Shown piece after piece: positions 3,724-48,455 of a DNA stretch of 49,984 bases; position 1 is the first letter of the stretch; each line of letters opens with the position of its first letter. This DNA comes from a virus (Duplodnaviria > Caudoviricetes), in IMG/VR virus record IMGVR_UViG_3300025110_000020, positions 1-49,984 of that record; one strand, given 5' to 3'. A program made the translations under genes and the position numbers. The notes under the pieces are model-generated. The model was not told the origin of the DNA and searched no databases. It saw nothing but the letters and a program-made list of their open reading frames with translations.

Positions 3724-4470
3724 ATGGGATTCTTTCCTCCTGACCATAAGTTCGCGACTGAATCAGCGAGCAATTCAACCACTAACGAAAACAATGATAA
3801 GTTCTATGCTCCTGGCAAGGAACTAGATGATGGTGATTCCCATCAGATCATTGTCTGTGGTGGCTTCGATACTGGCCACGTTATTAGTGGTTACAAGTAT
3901 TTTAAGAACGATGGTCAACCACATACCACTCCTTTCTCTGAAGGTTATCCAAAAGATTACAAGGAGGATATTGGTCTTAATTATGATGCTAAGTTCAACC
4001 GCAAGGTTGAATATGGCAACCATACAGAAGACGACCTCGACAAGCCTAAACAAATACTTAGCTTTGTTGGCTACATCAAAGAGAAGAAAGACTTTTCCAT
4101 TATTGAATTCAATACAAAAGCTTTACGTACTGCTCTAGAAGAAATCCTTTCAATGGACTCTTATGAAGTTAGTGAAGAAGGTGTATACAATTTCATGATG
4201 AAACTTTCACGTAAAGGAAGGAAGACAGACACTGTTTACACTTTGACTCCTGCACCACTAAAGGCACCAGCAAGAACTGCTGTAGCAAAGAAGTGGGCAG
4301 AGATTAAAGATAAGTGGTATCTGCCAGCTCTTTACGATAATGCTGATCCTTTTGCAGGTAAACCAGCCGAAGCAAAGACACGAGGTCTTCCGCCTACTCA
4401 TAGAGATGCACTAGGTGCCGACCATGAGATCAAATCATCATCCGAAGAAATCGGAAGTGATTGGGTCTAA
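3724..4470 (+). CDS. Putative ssDNA-binding/annealing protein
   Basis: Phage OB-fold-like pattern (KLSRKGRKTDTVYTLTPAP ... LYDNADPF), acidic tail, next to SSB. Confidence 0.5.
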   Translation: MGFFPPDHKFATESASNSTTNENNDKFYAPGKELDDGDSHQIIVCGGFDTGHVISGYKYFKNDGQPHTTPFSEGYPKDYKEDIGLNYDAKFNRKVEYGNHTEDDLDKPKQILSFVGYIKEKKDFSIIEFNTKALRTALEEILSMDSYEVSEEGVYNFMMKLSRKGRKTDTVYTLTPAPLKAPARTAVAKKWAEIKDKWYLPALYDNADPFAGKPAEAKTRGLPPTHRDALGADHEIKSSSEEIGSDWV

Positions 4471-11576: not shown

Positions 11577-12083
11577 ATGACTTCTCTTAAACCCCCAAAA
11601 TCACCACATCATTGGGATCAACGTTTCCTGTACGCAGCGAGAATGTTTGCAGGGTGGTCTAAAGATCCAAGTACAAAAGTTGGAGCTATAGCAGTACGAG
11701 ACAGGAGAATTTTAGTTCAAGGATATAACGGTCTCCCTGTCGGTATTACTGACTCAGACACAAGGCTCAAGAACAGAGACACTCGGCTAAGCTTGACAGT
11801 TCATGCAGAAATGAATTGTGTTGCCTATGCCTCACGTAATGGAGTTTGTCTGTCAGGAGCAACTATGTACATTTGGCCATTCATGGCTTGCAGTCAATGC
11901 GCTGCTATTTTAATCCAAGCTGATATTGGCAAGATAGTAATACCAGACTATGTAGAGCCTTATCGTTGGCAAGAATCATTCGATAAAGCTAGAGAAATGT
12001 GTGTAGAAGCTGGTGTTTCCGTTCACAAAATTCCAATGGAAGGTGATATAGACGAGGTTGAACATTCTGTCACTGAAGATTAA
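11577..12083 (+). CDS. dCMP deaminase
   Basis: SKDPSTKVGA, GYNG, HAEMN, CSQC zinc motifs. Confidence 0.93.
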   Translation: MTSLKPPKSPHHWDQRFLYAARMFAGWSKDPSTKVGAIAVRDRRILVQGYNGLPVGITDSDTRLKNRDTRLSLTVHAEMNCVAYASRNGVCLSGATMYIWPFMACSQCAAILIQADIGKIVIPDYVEPYRWQESFDKAREMCVEAGVSVHKIPMEGDIDEVEHSVTED

Positions 12084-12344: not shown

Positions 12345-13028
12345 ATGGCTCAGTGGGCAATTCCTCCGAAACTCCACTCTACAACTGAAGGTGGTCCGTT
12401 ATGTTTTCATGCAGATCACAATATTGGATCTAAAGATGGAAGAATTCCACGATACAACGATAGTCATGCCTGCGTTAGATGTGTCAGTGCTTTAACTGAA
12501 GGAAGACTCGGACTCGATGTCCATCGTATTGAAAGAAAATACAGACGTAGATTCTTAGAGTTTTGGTCTTTTGTAGAGATCAGAGGCCCTAATGAATGCT
12601 GGCCATGGAGGGGTAAATATCATTCAAGATCTAACTCAAGTTATTTTCCTATACCTAGGCATTGGGGATCAGGTAGACAATATTCTGCTCCTAGGGTTGC
12701 TGCTTGGTTCACTTGGGGAGACGTAGGTCGTCTACCTATCAAGCCTGTTTGTGGAGATAACAACTGTTGCAACCCCTTGCATCTCAGGATTAAAGGAGTC
12801 CCTCATTATTTTCATGACAGGCACATGCAAATCATGGATCTAGAGTTCAGCTCCAATAAACTATGCGGTGAAACTCAACTCTTCTTGGAAACAACTTACG
12901 ATAAAGATCCTAAAAGATTTGAACAAATCCAAAAAGCTAATAAGATTTGGATAGATTTCAGGCTCGCTGCTAATGGTCCTGTGGATCCTTTGAGTATTCA
13001 CTCCCTTAAGTCCAAGTTAAAGGAATGA
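12345..13028 (+). CDS. His-Cys-type HNH endonuclease-like protein, probably inactive
   Basis: ECWPWRG, APRVAAW, KPVCGDNNCCNPLHL; N-terminal C..H...RY...CVRC finger. Confidence 0.75.
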   Translation: MAQWAIPPKLHSTTEGGPLCFHADHNIGSKDGRIPRYNDSHACVRCVSALTEGRLGLDVHRIERKYRRRFLEFWSFVEIRGPNECWPWRGKYHSRSNSSYFPIPRHWGSGRQYSAPRVAAWFTWGDVGRLPIKPVCGDNNCCNPLHLRIKGVPHYFHDRHMQIMDLEFSSNKLCGETQLFLETTYDKDPKRFEQIQKANKIWIDFRLAANGPVDPLSIHSLKSKLKE

Positions 13029-15012: not shown

Positions 15013-15780
15013 GTGGCTACTGTTCCTTTTGAATCGTCTTCGGTTAAGAAGATATCTGCAACTGAGATGCCACAACGTTTAGTCTATACAGCCCTATTCA
15101 CTGCTCGTTTCGGAGGTTTCCTTACAGAAGAAGAACGTCAGGAGGCTGAAGAACAACAGTATTCAGAAGATGCATGTGGTCGTCTAGTTTCAGATCACTA
15201 CAGGAATACCAGTCATAGGTCTCCTACATGGATGATGTATTCCTTCTTGGAGCACCCATCTATATCTTTTCAAATAAGAGCAGATCATCGTACCTTATAT
15301 GAATTAGCTTTGGAAAGTAATGACATAGTTTTCGCAAATCAACCTCTAGAAGAAGTAGGAGAAGAGACTCAGATAGCTATCCACGAGAAGGATCTACCTC
15401 TAGAGACACTATTCAACGTGAGGCCAGTAGGAAATTACCCAGATCATAAAGGTAATAGGCATCCATGGAGTGAAGACGACAGGGAAGATCAATTATCATT
15501 TGGATTATCTACAGCAATTGACTATAAAACTAAGACTGATGCAGGTGTGTCCAGTCAGCAAGCAACGCAATGGTTGACTATGAATATATTGCAAAACTCA
15601 ATAGCTTCAGGTAGTCTGCGTGCATGGCTACAACTGCTAGACAGTCATGCCAGATCTCATAAAACATATGAGATGAAATCTGTGGTTTCTAAAATCTCGG
15701 ATCAGATTCAGATTTGGATTCCAGAAATCTACAGCTGGTGGTCATCGCAACATCGATCTAAATTAGACCTTAGAGTTTGA
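15013..15780 (+). CDS. ThyX (flavin-dependent thymidylate synthase) homolog lacking the catalytic motif
   Basis: PQRLVY, LEHPSISF, LETLFNVRPVGNYPD.KG, SLRAWLQLLD, WIPEIYSWW match cyanobacterial ThyX; RTHR...QSMRY is replaced by LESN...QPLEE. Confidence 0.8.
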   Translation: MATVPFESSSVKKISATEMPQRLVYTALFTARFGGFLTEEERQEAEEQQYSEDACGRLVSDHYRNTSHRSPTWMMYSFLEHPSISFQIRADHRTLYELALESNDIVFANQPLEEVGEETQIAIHEKDLPLETLFNVRPVGNYPDHKGNRHPWSEDDREDQLSFGLSTAIDYKTKTDAGVSSQQATQWLTMNILQNSIASGSLRAWLQLLDSHARSHKTYEMKSVVSKISDQIQIWIPEIYSWWSSQHRSKLDLRV

Positions 15781-15781
15781 C

Positions 15782-15964
15782 ATGAAAAAATTAATAGAGG
15801 TTACACGTCTACATGATGGATGTAGTGACTTGATTGATGAATTACAGAAAGATAAAGCAATGCATCAATATCTACCGTACGCACGCGCTATAGAAGAAGC
15901 AGCAGATCAATTACTAGTAGATTTCCAACGCATTTATGTAAATGGCAAGACCACAGCCGGTTGA
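15782..15964 (+). CDS. Hypothetical protein
   Basis: 60 aa, coupled. Confidence 0.6.
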   Translation: MKKLIEVTRLHDGCSDLIDELQKDKAMHQYLPYARAIEEAADQLLVDFQRIYVNGKTTAG

Positions 15965-16388
15965 ACTATTAGTTAAATTCTTCCCTGAACTAGTAGACAA
16001 AACAGTTGCTTCTTCCAATAAAGAAGCTTCAAAAGAATTGAATGTCAGAATTTGTGAAGCAATAATGTCTGACATGATTAGACATTTTGATAATATTAGA
16101 AGCTACTTAGGCGATGGAGCAATCATATTAAACCTTCTATCTGAACACGTACAAGACAGATCTAATTATGTGAATGCATATATGATGGAACAGGATTTGA
16201 AAGACGCAGAAGAAAATAAAGATTCAACTGTTATCGAATTCTGCAAAGACGCTTTGGAGATATTTGATAGTACAGATTTCGATAAAGAGATCTGTTTTAT
16301 TTTGCTGGATAATTCTGGTGGCTCCATATTAAAGCTACCTAGAGAGCAACCTGCAAAGAGAATCCAATCCATGATGGATGATTTATAG
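15942..16388 (+). CDS. Hypothetical protein
   Basis: 148 aa, coupled. Confidence 0.7.
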   Translation: MARPQPVELLVKFFPELVDKTVASSNKEASKELNVRICEAIMSDMIRHFDNIRSYLGDGAIILNLLSEHVQDRSNYVNAYMMEQDLKDAEENKDSTVIEFCKDALEIFDSTDFDKEICFILLDNSGGSILKLPREQPAKRIQSMMDDL

Positions 16389-17027
16389 ATGCAAGAACTT
16401 CGAGCTGTAGAACGGCCTGATAAATGTAATTTAGCTCCGCCGATAAATGTCGTTCAAGCTGCTCGATCAGTCTTAGGTTCTATTGACCTTGATCCTTATT
16501 CGACAAAAGATATTAATCGATTAGTAGAAGCTGCTAGATATTACGACCGAGATGAAATGTCTCTAGAAGATATCATTCATAGACATTGGGAAGTGCCTGG
16601 AGAGAAACGTGTATTCGTGGGAGCTCCTACAGGTGCGGCTCTGACAAGAAGATTACTTAATAAAACACTACATGAATATAGAGCAGGCTCTATTAATCAC
16701 GCAATCCTTTGGGTTGCACATAATGAAGCCTTGATAAGGTCACCATGGGTTTGGGACTTTCCTATCTGTATTCCATTCAGGAGATTAAGACCAACTTGGT
16801 GGGATGATGAATTAGAAGTCTTCAGAGGAGTGGCACCTTCTAATTGGTCCGCTATTGTTTATCTTCCTCCACCAGAGTCACATCAACAATTTGATGCGAT
16901 GGTTTCTAGATTCCATACTGCATTCAATCCTTTAGGTCGAATAGTATTCAACGAATACAGTGGCAATAATGATTGGGAAAAATCTTATCAAGTCACGTTA
17001 AAAAAAGCATATAATTATAAATCCTAA
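16389..17027 (+). CDS. Phage N6-adenine DNA methyltransferase homolog lacking NPPY
   Basis: AARSVLGSIDLDPYS SAM-binding region; RVFVGAPTG in place of RVFLNPPY. Confidence 0.75.
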   Translation: MQELRAVERPDKCNLAPPINVVQAARSVLGSIDLDPYSTKDINRLVEAARYYDRDEMSLEDIIHRHWEVPGEKRVFVGAPTGAALTRRLLNKTLHEYRAGSINHAILWVAHNEALIRSPWVWDFPICIPFRRLRPTWWDDELEVFRGVAPSNWSAIVYLPPPESHQQFDAMVSRFHTAFNPLGRIVFNEYSGNNDWEKSYQVTLKKAYNYKS

Positions 17028-17465
17028 ATGTCTATATTTGATCCACTATTTGATAGCTCCCCTCAGGAATTCCAGTCTCCTTCAGGACAAAAATTTTTAA
17101 TGATTAGGTCTATCGTTTACGACTCGTGGATTACATGGAAAGAAGCTTTGCCTGACGACACTAAGCAACACCCACTACTATCCCATGATGTATATAACAA
17201 TATCGTTGAATTAGCTGGTCGTATACACAAGCTTCATCAATCTTTACCTGGGTATAAACAAACTACGGAGAGCCCATTCCAATTTGTCTTATGGTGGGAT
17301 CCAACAGATACAGACGAGAATTGGAACTCAGGAAAAGTCTGTCGATTTATGATCAACGATTATTCTTCTGATGATTTAATTCATTACAACTCTCTTAAGA
17401 GAGTTACTCGTCTAAAGCTCAATCCCTTAACCAGCAGGCTCGTAGAGGCTACTGCAGTGAACTAA
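17028..17465 (+). CDS. Degenerate peptidase M15-like protein
   Basis: ITWKEA...NNIVELA.RI...PFQFVLWWDP...GKVCRF parallels FTW.EA...NI..LA...P..ITSWYRP...H..G.A.D without Zn ligands. Confidence 0.5.
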   Translation: MSIFDPLFDSSPQEFQSPSGQKFLMIRSIVYDSWITWKEALPDDTKQHPLLSHDVYNNIVELAGRIHKLHQSLPGYKQTTESPFQFVLWWDPTDTDENWNSGKVCRFMINDYSSDDLIHYNSLKRVTRLKLNPLTSRLVEATAVN

Positions 17466-17758
17466 GTTCCTAAGGTAGGATAAATATCTTTCTTGACTTC
17501 CCACGCCGCTGAGCGAGCTCCTAAAGCTCCTCTGCCTGCTTCGTCAAATACTTTAGCTTTTGATGCTTGTTCAGCAGAGCGTTGACCAAGGGTAACTATA
17601 CCTCTGCCACCTCTGTCTAAACTCTTAGCACCTCCAACACTGCCGCCATAAGACTGAGCATCCGAGTTTGCTTTCCTAGCTCGTGCCAAATATCGGCGTA
17701 CTAAAGCATCCTTATTATTGTTCCTATAAGGGGCACTTGGGTTTCCTCTTAAGGCCAA
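17462..17758 (-). CDS. Basic hypothetical protein
   Basis: ORF 17462..17860; TTG at 17758 (MALRGNPSAPY) avoids overlap with the divergent gene. Confidence 0.55.
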   Translation of the reverse strand: MALRGNPSAPYRNNNKDALVRRYLARARKANSDAQSYGGSVGGAKSLDRGGRGIVTLGQRSAEQASKAKVFDEAGRGALGARSAAWEVKKDIYPTLGT

Positions 17759-17810
17759 AGACTTGTTATTAGTTGTTTCATTTTCTATCCTAGGCAAAAT
17801 GGAACCATGA

Positions 17811-18131
17811 ATGGAGAAGACACGTTTTGACCTCGTCCCTTGGCAAGCTGTTGGAGACATCGCTGACGTTCTTGGCTACGGTGCTCGAAAGTATAGTTCT
17901 AATAACTGGTGTAGGGGAACCGAGTGGGGACGCTACTTTGCCGCATTATGTAGACACCTCTTCGCTTGGTGGAGAGGAGAGAACAATGATCCAGAAACAG
18001 GCTACTCCCACCTTGCCCACGCCGGATGTTGCCTCCTGTTCCTCATGGAATATCAAAGAAACAATTGGGGAACCGACGACAGATTCACCGGTCCAGACTC
18101 CGAAGACTTTACGAAAGGAGATGGCAGATGA
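17811..18131 (+). CDS. dATP/dGTP diphosphohydrolase domain protein (DUF5664)
   Basis: RFDLVP...VLGYGARKY..NNW..G...RH..AW..GE..DPETG.SHLAHA. Confidence 0.9.
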   Translation: MEKTRFDLVPWQAVGDIADVLGYGARKYSSNNWCRGTEWGRYFAALCRHLFAWWRGENNDPETGYSHLAHAGCCLLFLMEYQRNNWGTDDRFTGPDSEDFTKGDGR

Positions 18132-44735: not shown

Positions 44736-45443
44736 TTGGACGTAGCAGACGTGCGTGGATTATTAGGCCTACTTCTTGGAGATGGGAGCTTGGTCCCATA
44801 TCGTACTCCTGGAGGTGGTTATATACAATTAACGCTAACAGCGGGAGCATCTGAGTCTTGTTTTTTAGAAGAAAAGGTCTCAGAATTTCGTCAATTCATT
44901 CAAACCAAGGCCAAGATTGTACCCTATAAGACCACTCCAAGGTCGAACGGCAAGACAACTCCAATCTTAAGATTTCGGGTTTCAACCAATAAATTAAGAC
45001 CTGTTTACAATCTTTTATATCCCTTAGGAGAGAGGCAAATAACAATAACCACTCTCGACTTGTTAGGAGCCCCAGCAGCGGCTTGGTTGTGGGCAGAAGG
45101 AGCTAGGCCTAAGAAAGATCAGACTAACGTGCTCACACGTGTTGGAAACACTAGTGAAGAAGCGCTCATAATCTCTAAATGGCTCAACATGTTGACCGGA
45201 GCCTGTTCGACCTTAGATTCTAATTTTGCTCGTCCTAGGTTGGTTTTTGACGTAGATCAATCCCACAAAATCAAGCAGGCTTTAAATCAATATTCCCCTA
45301 AGAGTAAACAGCACTTATTCCAAGGAGATTTACTGGATGTCAACTCAATTCGTAACGCACGCACTGAGTTGCAGTTTAGGGAGAGGAATGATCAGTCTAA
45401 AAGGAACGAAGAACCGTCCATGGTTGGAGATATCTCGATGTGA
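44736..45443 (+). CDS. LAGLIDADG endonuclease-like protein
   Basis: GLLGLLLGDGSL first motif; second motif AAWLWAEG is degenerate; LYP.GE..IT...L. Confidence 0.75.
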   Translation: MDVADVRGLLGLLLGDGSLVPYRTPGGGYIQLTLTAGASESCFLEEKVSEFRQFIQTKAKIVPYKTTPRSNGKTTPILRFRVSTNKLRPVYNLLYPLGERQITITTLDLLGAPAAAWLWAEGARPKKDQTNVLTRVGNTSEEALIISKWLNMLTGACSTLDSNFARPRLVFDVDQSHKIKQALNQYSPKSKQHLFQGDLLDVNSIRNARTELQFRERNDQSKRNEEPSMVGDISM

Positions 45444-45948
45444 GACTGAAAGACCTTTACTGTCCTATCAAAGCAAGCTGCTAAGACAGCTACATCAGGG
45501 GCCTATCGACTATTACAAGGATCGAATATCGGGTCACGGTTTCTATGACAAGGAACGTTTTAGATTTCACGGCAATCAACTATATAAAGCATATGAATTG
45601 CTATATCCCAGAGATCAACGCTTTGTTTCTCTAGATGTATTAGAGGTTACAGGCAGAAAAGGATTAGCTCTCTTGTGGGCGGATCAAGGACGTATTAACG
45701 GTCGCAGAGGATCTCTAAGAGGTAAATATTCGTCTGAAGAATACAAGAATATTGCTAAATATATGAATACACTAGGTATAGAAGCTAGTCCTCATTCCAA
45801 CCAACTTACAACTATTGAGATTTGCTTATCTAGATCAGGACTCACATTAATGTTAGATATAGTCGAAGATTTTTTACCTAAAGGTGTTTACAATGGATTG
45901 TCCCGTAGAAGAACTATGTCAGGGACATCCCTCCGCCAGGGGTCTTAG
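45337..45948 (+). CDS. Degenerate LAGLIDADG endonuclease-like protein
   Basis: SCSLGRG (vs LGDG), YELLYP, GLALLWADQG (vs DDG). Confidence 0.65.
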   Translation: MSTQFVTHALSCSLGRGMISLKGTKNRPWLEISRCETERPLLSYQSKLLRQLHQGPIDYYKDRISGHGFYDKERFRFHGNQLYKAYELLYPRDQRFVSLDVLEVTGRKGLALLWADQGRINGRRGSLRGKYSSEEYKNIAKYMNTLGIEASPHSNQLTTIEICLSRSGLTLMLDIVEDFLPKGVYNGLSRRRTMSGTSLRQGS

Positions 45949-47324: not shown

Positions 47325-48455
47325 CTATCTGATACCTACAAATCCCCCATTGTTAGAGATATCTAAAGTCAAATATCCTTGATCAGGTTGATAATCAATC
47401 TTTCCTCTCCATCTGCTCTTCAACCAATTAAAGAGATGATGTATGTCTTCTTTTCCTGGGCATATATCTAATCCTTCTCCTTTGGAATGAGCTGAATCAG
47501 GTGTGCCTCCTATCTCCCTGTTGAAAGGTTCGGATCTGAAGCCGCCAACAACCCATAAGGGGCCATTCCATGCCTCTCTGACGGCATTAAACTCTTCGAC
47601 AAGACGTATGAGTCGTTCAGCTTCTATGCTGTCCTTCTCGGGTATATTACGAGGGTCATATTGCACTACCTCTCCCACAGTTAGGTATCTACCTAAAGGG
47701 CAATTCAAGTCTGTCCAATCTATATCGGAATCAGTAGGGATATGAGAAGTTAATAGTTCGAAATCGGGCATATATGCAGCCCATCTACCTGGTGTTCCAT
47801 ATATCCATAACCAATTATGTAGATCTCTAGGGATTTCACGGGATTGACTAATTTGTATTATCTCATCTTCTTCGATTCTCTTTTTAGCTGGATCAGCCAA
47901 CCAAATATAATCTAATGTTGCTTTCTTAAGGTAAGTATCACGCTTAGCCTTGAGATATACAGACTTCACGCTCTCTCTATCCCATTCATTTCCTTCAATA
48001 CTGCGTCGATCAAGCAAAGCAGCAGACTCATGCCCTTGATAAGTAGCGTATAAGCTGAATATCTCACTCATCTCTTCATATCTCTCCGGATAATCTATAG
48101 ATGCTTCTAATATTTCTTTAATAGGCCTGAATTCCTCCTTTTTGTAAATATCAAATCCTTTACTCCAACCAAAACTCAGTAATGCTGCCTGTCTTCTATG
48201 TCCTAGCCTCTCCCACCCCGGAAGATTAGTAATATATTGAGACGATTCTTTTTTGATTAAGTCTTTCGTGTACTGATAACAGATGGAAGCTTTACAAACG
48301 TCCCCCATTCGGACAATATCTCCTCCGGGATACGTAACAAGTCCAGTGCAGATTGTGGCAACCCCTTGAGGATCTTGATATGCCTCAGTCTCTACTCCTT
48401 CAAACTTTGTTATCAGCTTGACGGCTCGATCCAGGGTCTTCAGATGTATCGCCAT
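47325..48455 (-). CDS. Endolysin: GH24 lysozyme + peptidase M15 domain
   Basis: FEG....YQD..G..TI..G; GFR..P.N..IGG...SAH..G.GLD. Confidence 0.85.
   Translation of the reverse strand: MAIHLKTLDRAVKLITKFEGVETEAYQDPQGVATICTGLVTYPGGDIVRMGDVCKASICYQYTKDLIKKESSQYITNLPGWERLGHRRQAALLSFGWSKGFDIYKKEEFRPIKEILEASIDYPERYEEMSEIFSLYATYQGHESAALLDRRSIEGNEWDRESVKSVYLKAKRDTYLKKATLDYIWLADPAKKRIEEDEIIQISQSREIPRDLHNWLWIYGTPGRWAAYMPDFELLTSHIPTDSDIDWTDLNCPLGRYLTVGEVVQYDPRNIPEKDSIEAERLIRLVEEFNAVREAWNGPLWVVGGFRSEPFNREIGGTPDSAHSKGEGLDICPGKEDIHHLFNWLKSRWRGKIDYQPDQGYLTLDISNNGGFVGIR

Follow-up and report, generated by a model that had tools for sequence, protein, structure and literature searches.

Why would a phage keep full-length genes for enzymes whose catalytic residues are gone? 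The question is raised by the IMG/VR record IMGVR_UViG_3300025110_000020 (Duplodnaviria; Caudoviricetes), a whole virus record of 49,984 bases (the window). Between positions 15,013 and 17,465 it carries an operon of five forward-strand open reading frames (ORF1 to ORF5). The intergenic gaps are 1, −23, 0, and 0 nucleotides, and there are no internal stops, in agreement with an initial annotation that described five tightly coupled, intact ORFs. ORF1 is a derivative of ThyX, the flavin-dependent thymidylate synthase. ORF4 has a Dam-type methyltransferase fold and ORF5 a peptidase M15A fold, both predicted. The explanation that we favor, with moderate confidence, is that these intact and conserved putative pseudoenzymes were exapted gene by gene to non-catalytic binding or scaffold roles and were partly co-adapted.

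Against Pfam Thy1, whose cut-off is 24.8 bits, ORF1 scores 28.9 bits. Its residues were compared with those of intact syntenic orthologues in the numbering of T. maritima ThyX, which we take to map onto ORF1 motif by motif. The window protein reads LALES...ANQPLEE at the sites of RTHR...DVQSMRY in intact relatives. E101 and S102 stand at the H and R positions of the RHR motif, and the equivalents of S88, R90, Y91, and R174 are P111, E113, E114, and H212. The RHR motif is described as binding flavin adenine dinucleotide (FAD; PMC6514825), S88, R90, Y91, and R174 as having catalytic and deoxyuridine monophosphate (dUMP) roles (PMC8316439), and a role is also described for H53 (PMC11940539). In these accounts, the residues lost from degenerate ThyX bind folate, FAD, or dUMP or aid catalysis. 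Among 74 distinct ThyX sequences of 200–300 aa (shorter, cut, and intein-bearing ones were left out), the distribution is bimodal: all five scored residues are present in 33, and at most two in 41. The equivalents of H53, H79, Y91, and R147 occur in none of the 41 degenerate proteins, and those of R90 and R174 in one each. Positions common to intact and degenerate ThyX are mostly Pro, Gly, aromatic, or acidic. The initial annotation of ORF1 as a ThyX relative with replaced motifs is supported. As the residues contacting FAD, dUMP, and folate are lost, the protein would be plausible neither as an enzyme nor as a sponge for these ligands. A small-molecule sponge role thus appears unlikely, and the decoy or sponge action suggested at the outset was not borne out.

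In 5/5 records, Thy1 matches nothing besides the dead copy, and no ThyA was found in 5/5 records, four of them shared with the Thy1 set and two at least 90% complete. In the relatives G001 (95% complete) and G002 (100%), the dead ThyX is the sole Thy1 match and no ThyA was found. We rejected the idea of a dead duplicate of an active copy, because the records checked hold no other Thy1 or ThyA. Two unusual forms of the gene were seen. L003 (3830–5566, + strand) encodes a 578-aa ThyX with intact motifs and, by eye, a large intein-like insert just before the EH motif. L025, a single contig, encodes a 145-aa mini-ThyX (3900–4337, − strand) that is moved and inverted and from which an in-frame deletion has removed the catalytic middle part.

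Sequence comparison links ORF4 to Dam-type proteins of PF05869, although it has no match to Pfam Dam. Its predicted structure (predicted local distance difference test, pLDDT, 92) matches phage N6-adenine methyltransferases in BFVD, and CAPAM, DIMT1, KsgA, and E. coli Dam in the PDB with Z 8.0–8.8; spermidine synthase shares the fold (Z 7.8). The model and these matches agree with a class I S-adenosylmethionine (SAM)-dependent fold. The DxDP motif, presumably involved in SAM binding, is retained in 163 distinct sequences: D33 and D35 are invariant, and P36 is present in 156. Motif IV, (N/D/S)PP(Y/F/W), is different. The window has GAPT instead of NPPY. Of the 163 sequences, 105 have G at the catalytic position, 44 have A, 10 have F, and 4 have S; neither N nor D occurs there, and two sequences have an aromatic residue at the stacking position. 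The motif is thus missing from all relatives, and the description of ORF4 as an adenine methyltransferase relative without its catalytic motif is upheld by the sequence link, the fold match, and the residues at motif IV.

ORF3 gave no usable match in Pfam, PHROG, PDB sequences, or the ESM Atlas. Its constant companion is the motif-less methyltransferase. In a distant group related to cyanophage S-EIV1, it lies beside an FPP(T/N)-type methyltransferase in 17/18 loci, the one miss being a contig end, and beside an NPP- or NHP-type enzyme in 0/3 loci. S-EIV1 itself carries adjacent homologues of ORF3 (AHV82251) and of an FPPN-type ORF4 (AHV82250). The tree is compatible with either one or two motif losses for the two motif-less ORF4 groups. 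Prediction of a complex of ORF4, SAM, and ORF3 gave a score of 0.00, which counts neither for nor against an interaction. Beside the ORF3–ORF4 pair, L066 (8790–9527), L070 (6792–7541), and L075 (8937–9668) carry phage-lysozyme-like genes, all on the − strand, which by eye seem to lack the catalytic Glu.

The fold of ORF5 comes from the predicted structure only (pLDDT 91.5). The best PDB match is the M15A enzyme 1LBU (Z 9.3, root-mean-square deviation 2.9, 108 residues aligned), the next match has Z 5.5, and M15A proteins are also matched in BFVD. No sequence link to M15 was found through Pfam, PHROGs, or PDB sequences. The ORF5 profile matched the window's own M15 domain with a probability of 0.7%, and a profile search of 1.8 billion proteins gave 70 matches, of which 33 were scanned and none matched M15. 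The zinc-ligand His/Asp/His and substrate Arg, which we take to be the M15 motif, are present in the phages' own lysozyme-fusion M15 domains; by motif analogy with these, the Arg/His/Asp/His equivalents in ORF5 were placed at D91, W99, R106, and E140. Among 93 distinct sequences, the presumed first zinc ligand is W99 in 90 and His in none. Position 106 is R, L, V, or I, position 91 is D or E in all 93, E140 is kept in 84, H67 in 84, and H70 in 88. The M15 motif is thus absent from all relatives at the sites placed by analogy, and this loss and the predicted fold support the initial description of an M15 relative with replaced motifs. In the lysozyme–M15 fusion of the window (Table 1), Thr replaces the last zinc-binding His, which is present in five relatives (HID/HLD). 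This M15 domain may be inactive, in this genome only.

Relatives were collected with an ORF4 profile, taking the best 80 of 144 viral and the best 80 of 287 metagenome loci, which are partly redundant. Where the flank is long enough, ORF3 is present in 114/114 loci, ORF5 in 116/116, ThyX in 85/93, and ORF2 in 79/114; ORF2 is patchy outside the dead-ThyX clade. The ratio of non-synonymous to synonymous substitution rates (dN/dS; Nei–Gojobori, disjoint pairs with dS 0.03–0.6 within the dead clade) is 0.110 for dead ThyX (14 pairs), compared with 0.080 for intact ThyX (7 pairs). Values for the other genes are given in Table 1. The largest single-pair value for ORF1 and ORF3–5 is 0.33. No frameshift or internal stop was found among 121–144 loci per gene, and tblastn gave no split match. 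Seven flagged stops (one in ORF4, six in ORF5) lie upstream of the gene starts, as judged by coordinates and, for L056, by inference. Neither a dN/dS near 1 nor frequent disruption, the signs of decay named in the initial annotation, was thus found, and its proposal of selection for a non-catalytic role is in keeping with dN/dS of 0.05–0.11 and the lack of broken copies. Simple decay of unneeded genes could be argued from the in-frame deletion in L025 and from the loci that lack thyX. With these ratios and no disruption, it is ruled out for ORF1 and ORF3–5, and its overall probability is close to nil.

The catalytic losses are of different ages, since the motifs of ORF4 and ORF5 are missing in all relatives and those of ThyX in part of them only. 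On a tree of ORF3, ORF4, and ORF5 (53 rows), the ThyX state changes twice, in the window clade and in L021/L027. The window's dead-ThyX clade has low GC, comprises 21 rows, and has SH-aLRT support of 100. A single origin of the ThyX losses in the window clade, L021/L027, and L025 is only weakly rejected (approximately unbiased test, p 0.04). ThyX has probably degenerated two or three times. In the sister clade L030/L032, where ORF3–5 are kept, the thyX gene is absent from the locus and from three partial genomes. The gene order is rearranged in L021/L027. The different ages, the rearranged order, and the missing thyX speak against one purpose-built module.

Stem lengths were obtained on a fixed topology, and the stem share, as the fraction of tree length, with 20 bootstraps. 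At the base of the dead clade, ORF1 (0.76 changes per site), ORF3 (1.26), and ORF5 (1.09) have long stems, and ORF4, the HNH-like protein, dCMP deaminase, the diphosphohydrolase, and the reverse-strand ORF have short ones (0.07–0.16). The stem share is 0.093 (0.064–0.114) for ORF3 and 0.075 (0.042–0.095) for ORF5, compared with 0.012 for ORF4, 0.022 for the dGTP-diphosphohydrolase, and 0.010 for the reverse ORF. The bootstrap ranges of ORF3 and ORF5 do not overlap with that of ORF4. This burst fits co-adaptation or shared host-facing roles. Of the suggestion that the five proteins are parts of one complex, it leaves partial co-adaptation of ORF1, ORF3, and ORF5, and does not extend to ORF4.

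In the explanation that we favor, each protein would have been recruited separately, without one designed module, and would act during infection. The Dam-fold protein and ORF3 would form the oldest pair. ORF4 has probably retained SAM binding and may also bind nucleic acid, with no methylation of adenine expected. The M15-fold protein has likely turned into a tryptophan-lined binding surface. ThyX likely held a second, structural job while it was still an enzyme, as suggested by the intact and dead forms, which share a locus and are under purifying selection of similar strength. The thymidylate synthase of T4 has been regarded as a structural or multienzyme component, for which our literature search gave no confirmation. 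Reliance on host deoxythymidine monophosphate (dTMP) may then have allowed ThyX catalysis to be lost and the fold to be kept. The remodeling of ORF1, ORF3, and ORF5 would have fallen on one branch in the clade of the window, and points to shared partners, either each other or host proteins.

Several observations weigh against this explanation. The absence of thyX from 8/93 loci makes it dispensable in one clade. Loci were retrieved with ORF4 peptide patterns, so that broken ORF4 copies are under-sampled. The burst is absent on the L021/L027 stem (ORF3 0.031 and ORF5 0.019, compared with 0.021 for ORF4). A host switch or the replacement of genes could instead underlie the burst of ORF3 and ORF5; free gene trees give different sisters. 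Finally, ORF4 has the invariant polar residues N43, E113, C127, and R132, and ORF5 keeps D91, E140, H67, and H70, which could serve a different chemistry.

These residues favor re-purposed enzymes, with ORF4 as a SAM-dependent transferase acting on a non-adenine acceptor, ORF5 as a hydrolase with a rebuilt metal site, or both. The invariant DxDP of ORF4 points the same way, as does the SAM decarboxylase encoded by S-EIV1, given that spermidine synthase has the fold of ORF4. However, motif IV varies freely (G/A/F/S, T/A/S/V), unlike a new catalytic motif, the Trp in ORF5 occupies the presumed first zinc-ligand site, and the idea does not suit ORF1, in which the cofactor contacts are lost. We regard it as unlikely. 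Equally unlikely, in our judgment, is that dead ThyX enters mixed tetramers with host ThyX and poisons or tunes it in a dominant-negative or prozyme-like manner and, jointly with the dCMP deaminase of the phage, steers the dUMP/dTMP pools. ThyX active sites are described as built from three subunits, so that one dead subunit could affect several (PMC6514825, PMC11940539), and in trypanosomes dead paralogues are described as activating enzymes (PMC3663545). No active phage ThyX paralogue was found, and S. elongatus, the cyanobacterial control genome, carries Thy1. Nevertheless, a phage in need of deoxythymidine triphosphate would gain little from blocking the host supply, divergence is about 3x faster inside the dead clade than outside, which is difficult to reconcile with a host interface that stays fixed, and ORF4 and ORF5 are left unexplained.

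Anti-defense decoys or sponges, for example an ORF4 that sequesters SAM or shields recognition sites from restriction or BREX, have a low probability. BREX is described as requiring SAM (PMC11842806). ORF4 retains the SAM-binding motif, and ORF3 and ORF5 changed rapidly on one branch. Yet these genes belong to the core, evolve slowly, and occur wherever a locus has room for them, whereas anti-defense genes are usually patchy. The ThyX derivative lacks ligand-binding residues, and PADLOC anti-phage defense profiles gave 0 matches for ORF1, ORF3–5, and the HNH-like protein; ORF2 has a weak AbiEi match (E 0.038). Lower still we place virion or assembly proteins resembling the inactivated enzymes of orthopoxviruses (10.1101/2022.11.22.517515). 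Core conservation would suit them, and the block in L030 holds a gene whose start resembles, by eye, a gene of the G002 terminase region. The operon, however, shares the + strand with the replication and nucleotide genes among which it lies, and the structural genes are on the other strand. More speculative than the exaptation that we favor, though less improbable than any of these, is a host-takeover complex of dead enzymes. Pseudo-ThyX, ORF3, and pseudo-M15 would have been remodeled together on a move to Prochlorococcus-like hosts and would assemble with the SAM-binding pseudo-methyltransferase, in a lineage that entrenches folds so reliably that ThyX, dCMP deaminase, HNH, Dam, and M15 each lost catalysis without being lost.

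The phage belongs to the cyanophage lineage related to S-EIV1, and the operon lies within its core block. The major capsid protein of S-EIV1 is 70% identical to that of the window and is the sole match among 50,697 phage records. The window's psbA is 95% identical to those of P-SSM2 and P-SSM5, both of them Prochlorococcus phages, so that the host may be Prochlorococcus-like. A marine cyanophage lineage typified by BAC21E04 is outlined as having a split DNA polymerase, class II ribonucleotide reductase, talC, nblA, and psbA (10.1101/325100). From this set, psbA was found and an nblA-like match fell below the cut-off. No DNA polymerase, ribonucleotide reductase, or talC was found among the 81/136 ORFs scanned in G002 (L167–L171), a complete 85-kb relative. 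None of eight genome-collection matches is a cyanobacterial prophage; all are contigs that had been placed in metagenome bins of unrelated taxa. The assignment of these contigs of the phage family (L200–L207) to archaeal and other bacterial metagenome genomes probably gives rise to wrong host labels.

Table 1. Features of the window, with strand and supporting evidence (dN/dS within the dead-ThyX clade).
Feature	Position	Strand	Description	Evidence
dCMP deaminase	11577..12083	+	Motifs intact in window	Pfam; dN/dS 0.028
HNH-like gene	12345..13028	+	HNH/His-Me finger relative; His before conserved Arg missing, zinc cysteines kept	PHROG endonuclease matches; dN/dS 0.019
ORF1	15013..15780	+	255 aa; ThyX derivative; residues for FAD, dUMP, folate, and catalysis lost	Pfam Thy1 E 1.2e-6; alignment with intact syntenic orthologues; dN/dS 0.110
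ORF2	15782..15964	+	60 aa; small, under weaker constraint; assigned to no known family	dN/dS 0.41
ORF3	15942..16388	+	148 aa; family accompanying motif-less methyltransferase, back to S-EIV1	Locus counts (see text); dN/dS 0.053
ORF4	16389..17027	+	212 aa; methyltransferase fold of the Dam (PF05869) type with DxDP; GAPT at the NPPY site	Sequence and predicted structure; dN/dS 0.056
ORF5	17028..17465	+	145 aa; predicted peptidase M15A fold without zinc-binding His/Asp/His; many conserved tryptophans	Model; dN/dS 0.064
Reverse ORF	17462..17860	−	Basic; overlaps ORF5 end	Homologues in most loci
dATP/dGTP diphosphohydrolase-N family gene	17811..18131	+	Conserved downstream neighbor	Pfam PF18909; 98/116 loci
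LAGLIDADG-like ORFs	44736..45948	+	Two overlapping ORFs adjoining capsid gene	Kept in most genomes compared
Lysozyme–M15 fusion	47325..48455	−	Thr for last zinc-binding His	Comparison with five relatives

Residue losses were also seen in genes around the operon. In the HNH-like gene, the His before the conserved Arg is present in 0/64 distinct sequences and is replaced in S-EIV1 too. Its product is a candidate fourth pseudoenzyme and possibly a DNA-binding protein. The HxE/CxxC set (H, E, C, C) of dCMP deaminase is lost in 8/53 distinct sequences, all from genomes with intact ThyX; full-length proteins without these motifs were seen in L043, L047, L048, L050, L051, L053, L055, and L061. The ThyX/dCMP deaminase states are dead/intact in 26 cases, intact/dead in 10, intact/intact in 17, and dead/dead in none. 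We discounted this complementarity as evidence, because each state is confined to one part of the tree. The residue losses in the HNH-like protein and dCMP deaminase indicate that, as far as conserved motifs tell, this lineage repeatedly retains enzyme folds after catalysis is gone. Upstream of the operon the alignment is poorly conserved, and a sigma-70 scan gave 11 sites, compared with 19.9 in shuffles, none of them before ORF1.

A literature search, whose reach excluded most subscription literature, gave no earlier description of the cluster, as the initial annotation had supposed. At this locus, the probable exaptation of an enzyme in a bacteriophage can be traced on a tree. Its oldest pair, ORF3–ORF4, is present in the cultured phage S-EIV1 and is thus directly testable. 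Since the dead ThyX lies above the Pfam cut-off, it invites mis-annotation as a metabolic gene, and profile-based counts of auxiliary metabolic genes include such dead copies.

ORF1 resembles ThyX (PF02511; for example, that of Synechococcus phages ACG-2014f and S-H1) in its full length and in the fold expected from its sequence, and its intact orthologues, one with the intein-like insert, are syntenic. It differs in that the equivalents of RHR, SxRY, R147, R174, and H53 are replaced. ORF4 shares the class I SAM-dependent fold and DxDP with phage Dam-family methyltransferases of PF05869, and its nearest sequence relatives carry NPPY, NPPG, or NHPF. Unlike these, it has N/D at motif IV in 0/163 sequences, always accompanies ORF3, and does not match Pfam Dam. 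ORF5 resembles the M15A peptidases (the Streptomyces Zn DD-peptidase 1LBU; phage M15_3) in its predicted fold and differs from them in lacking the zinc set and Arg, at positions placed by analogy, and any sequence-level link that we could find. S-EIV1 (KJ410740) shares the capsid protein, the adjacent ORF3 and FPPN-type ORF4, and the HNH-like homologue. No ORF5 homologue was found there, and its annotated ThyX lies elsewhere and, by eye, keeps RHG...STRY and the R and R positions.

Exaptation of inactivated enzymes is already known from poxviruses: orthopoxviruses are described as keeping exapted enzyme folds with disrupted catalytic sites (10.1101/2022.11.22.517515). The retention seen here is of the same kind, in a bacteriophage and with several such genes adjacent. 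The present analysis adds the repeated loss of the ThyX catalytic residues, the pair in S-EIV1, the dead dCMP deaminases, and the branch-specific burst. In contrast to the orthopoxvirus enzymes, intact and dead ThyX orthologues coexist here, so that the transition can be placed on the tree.

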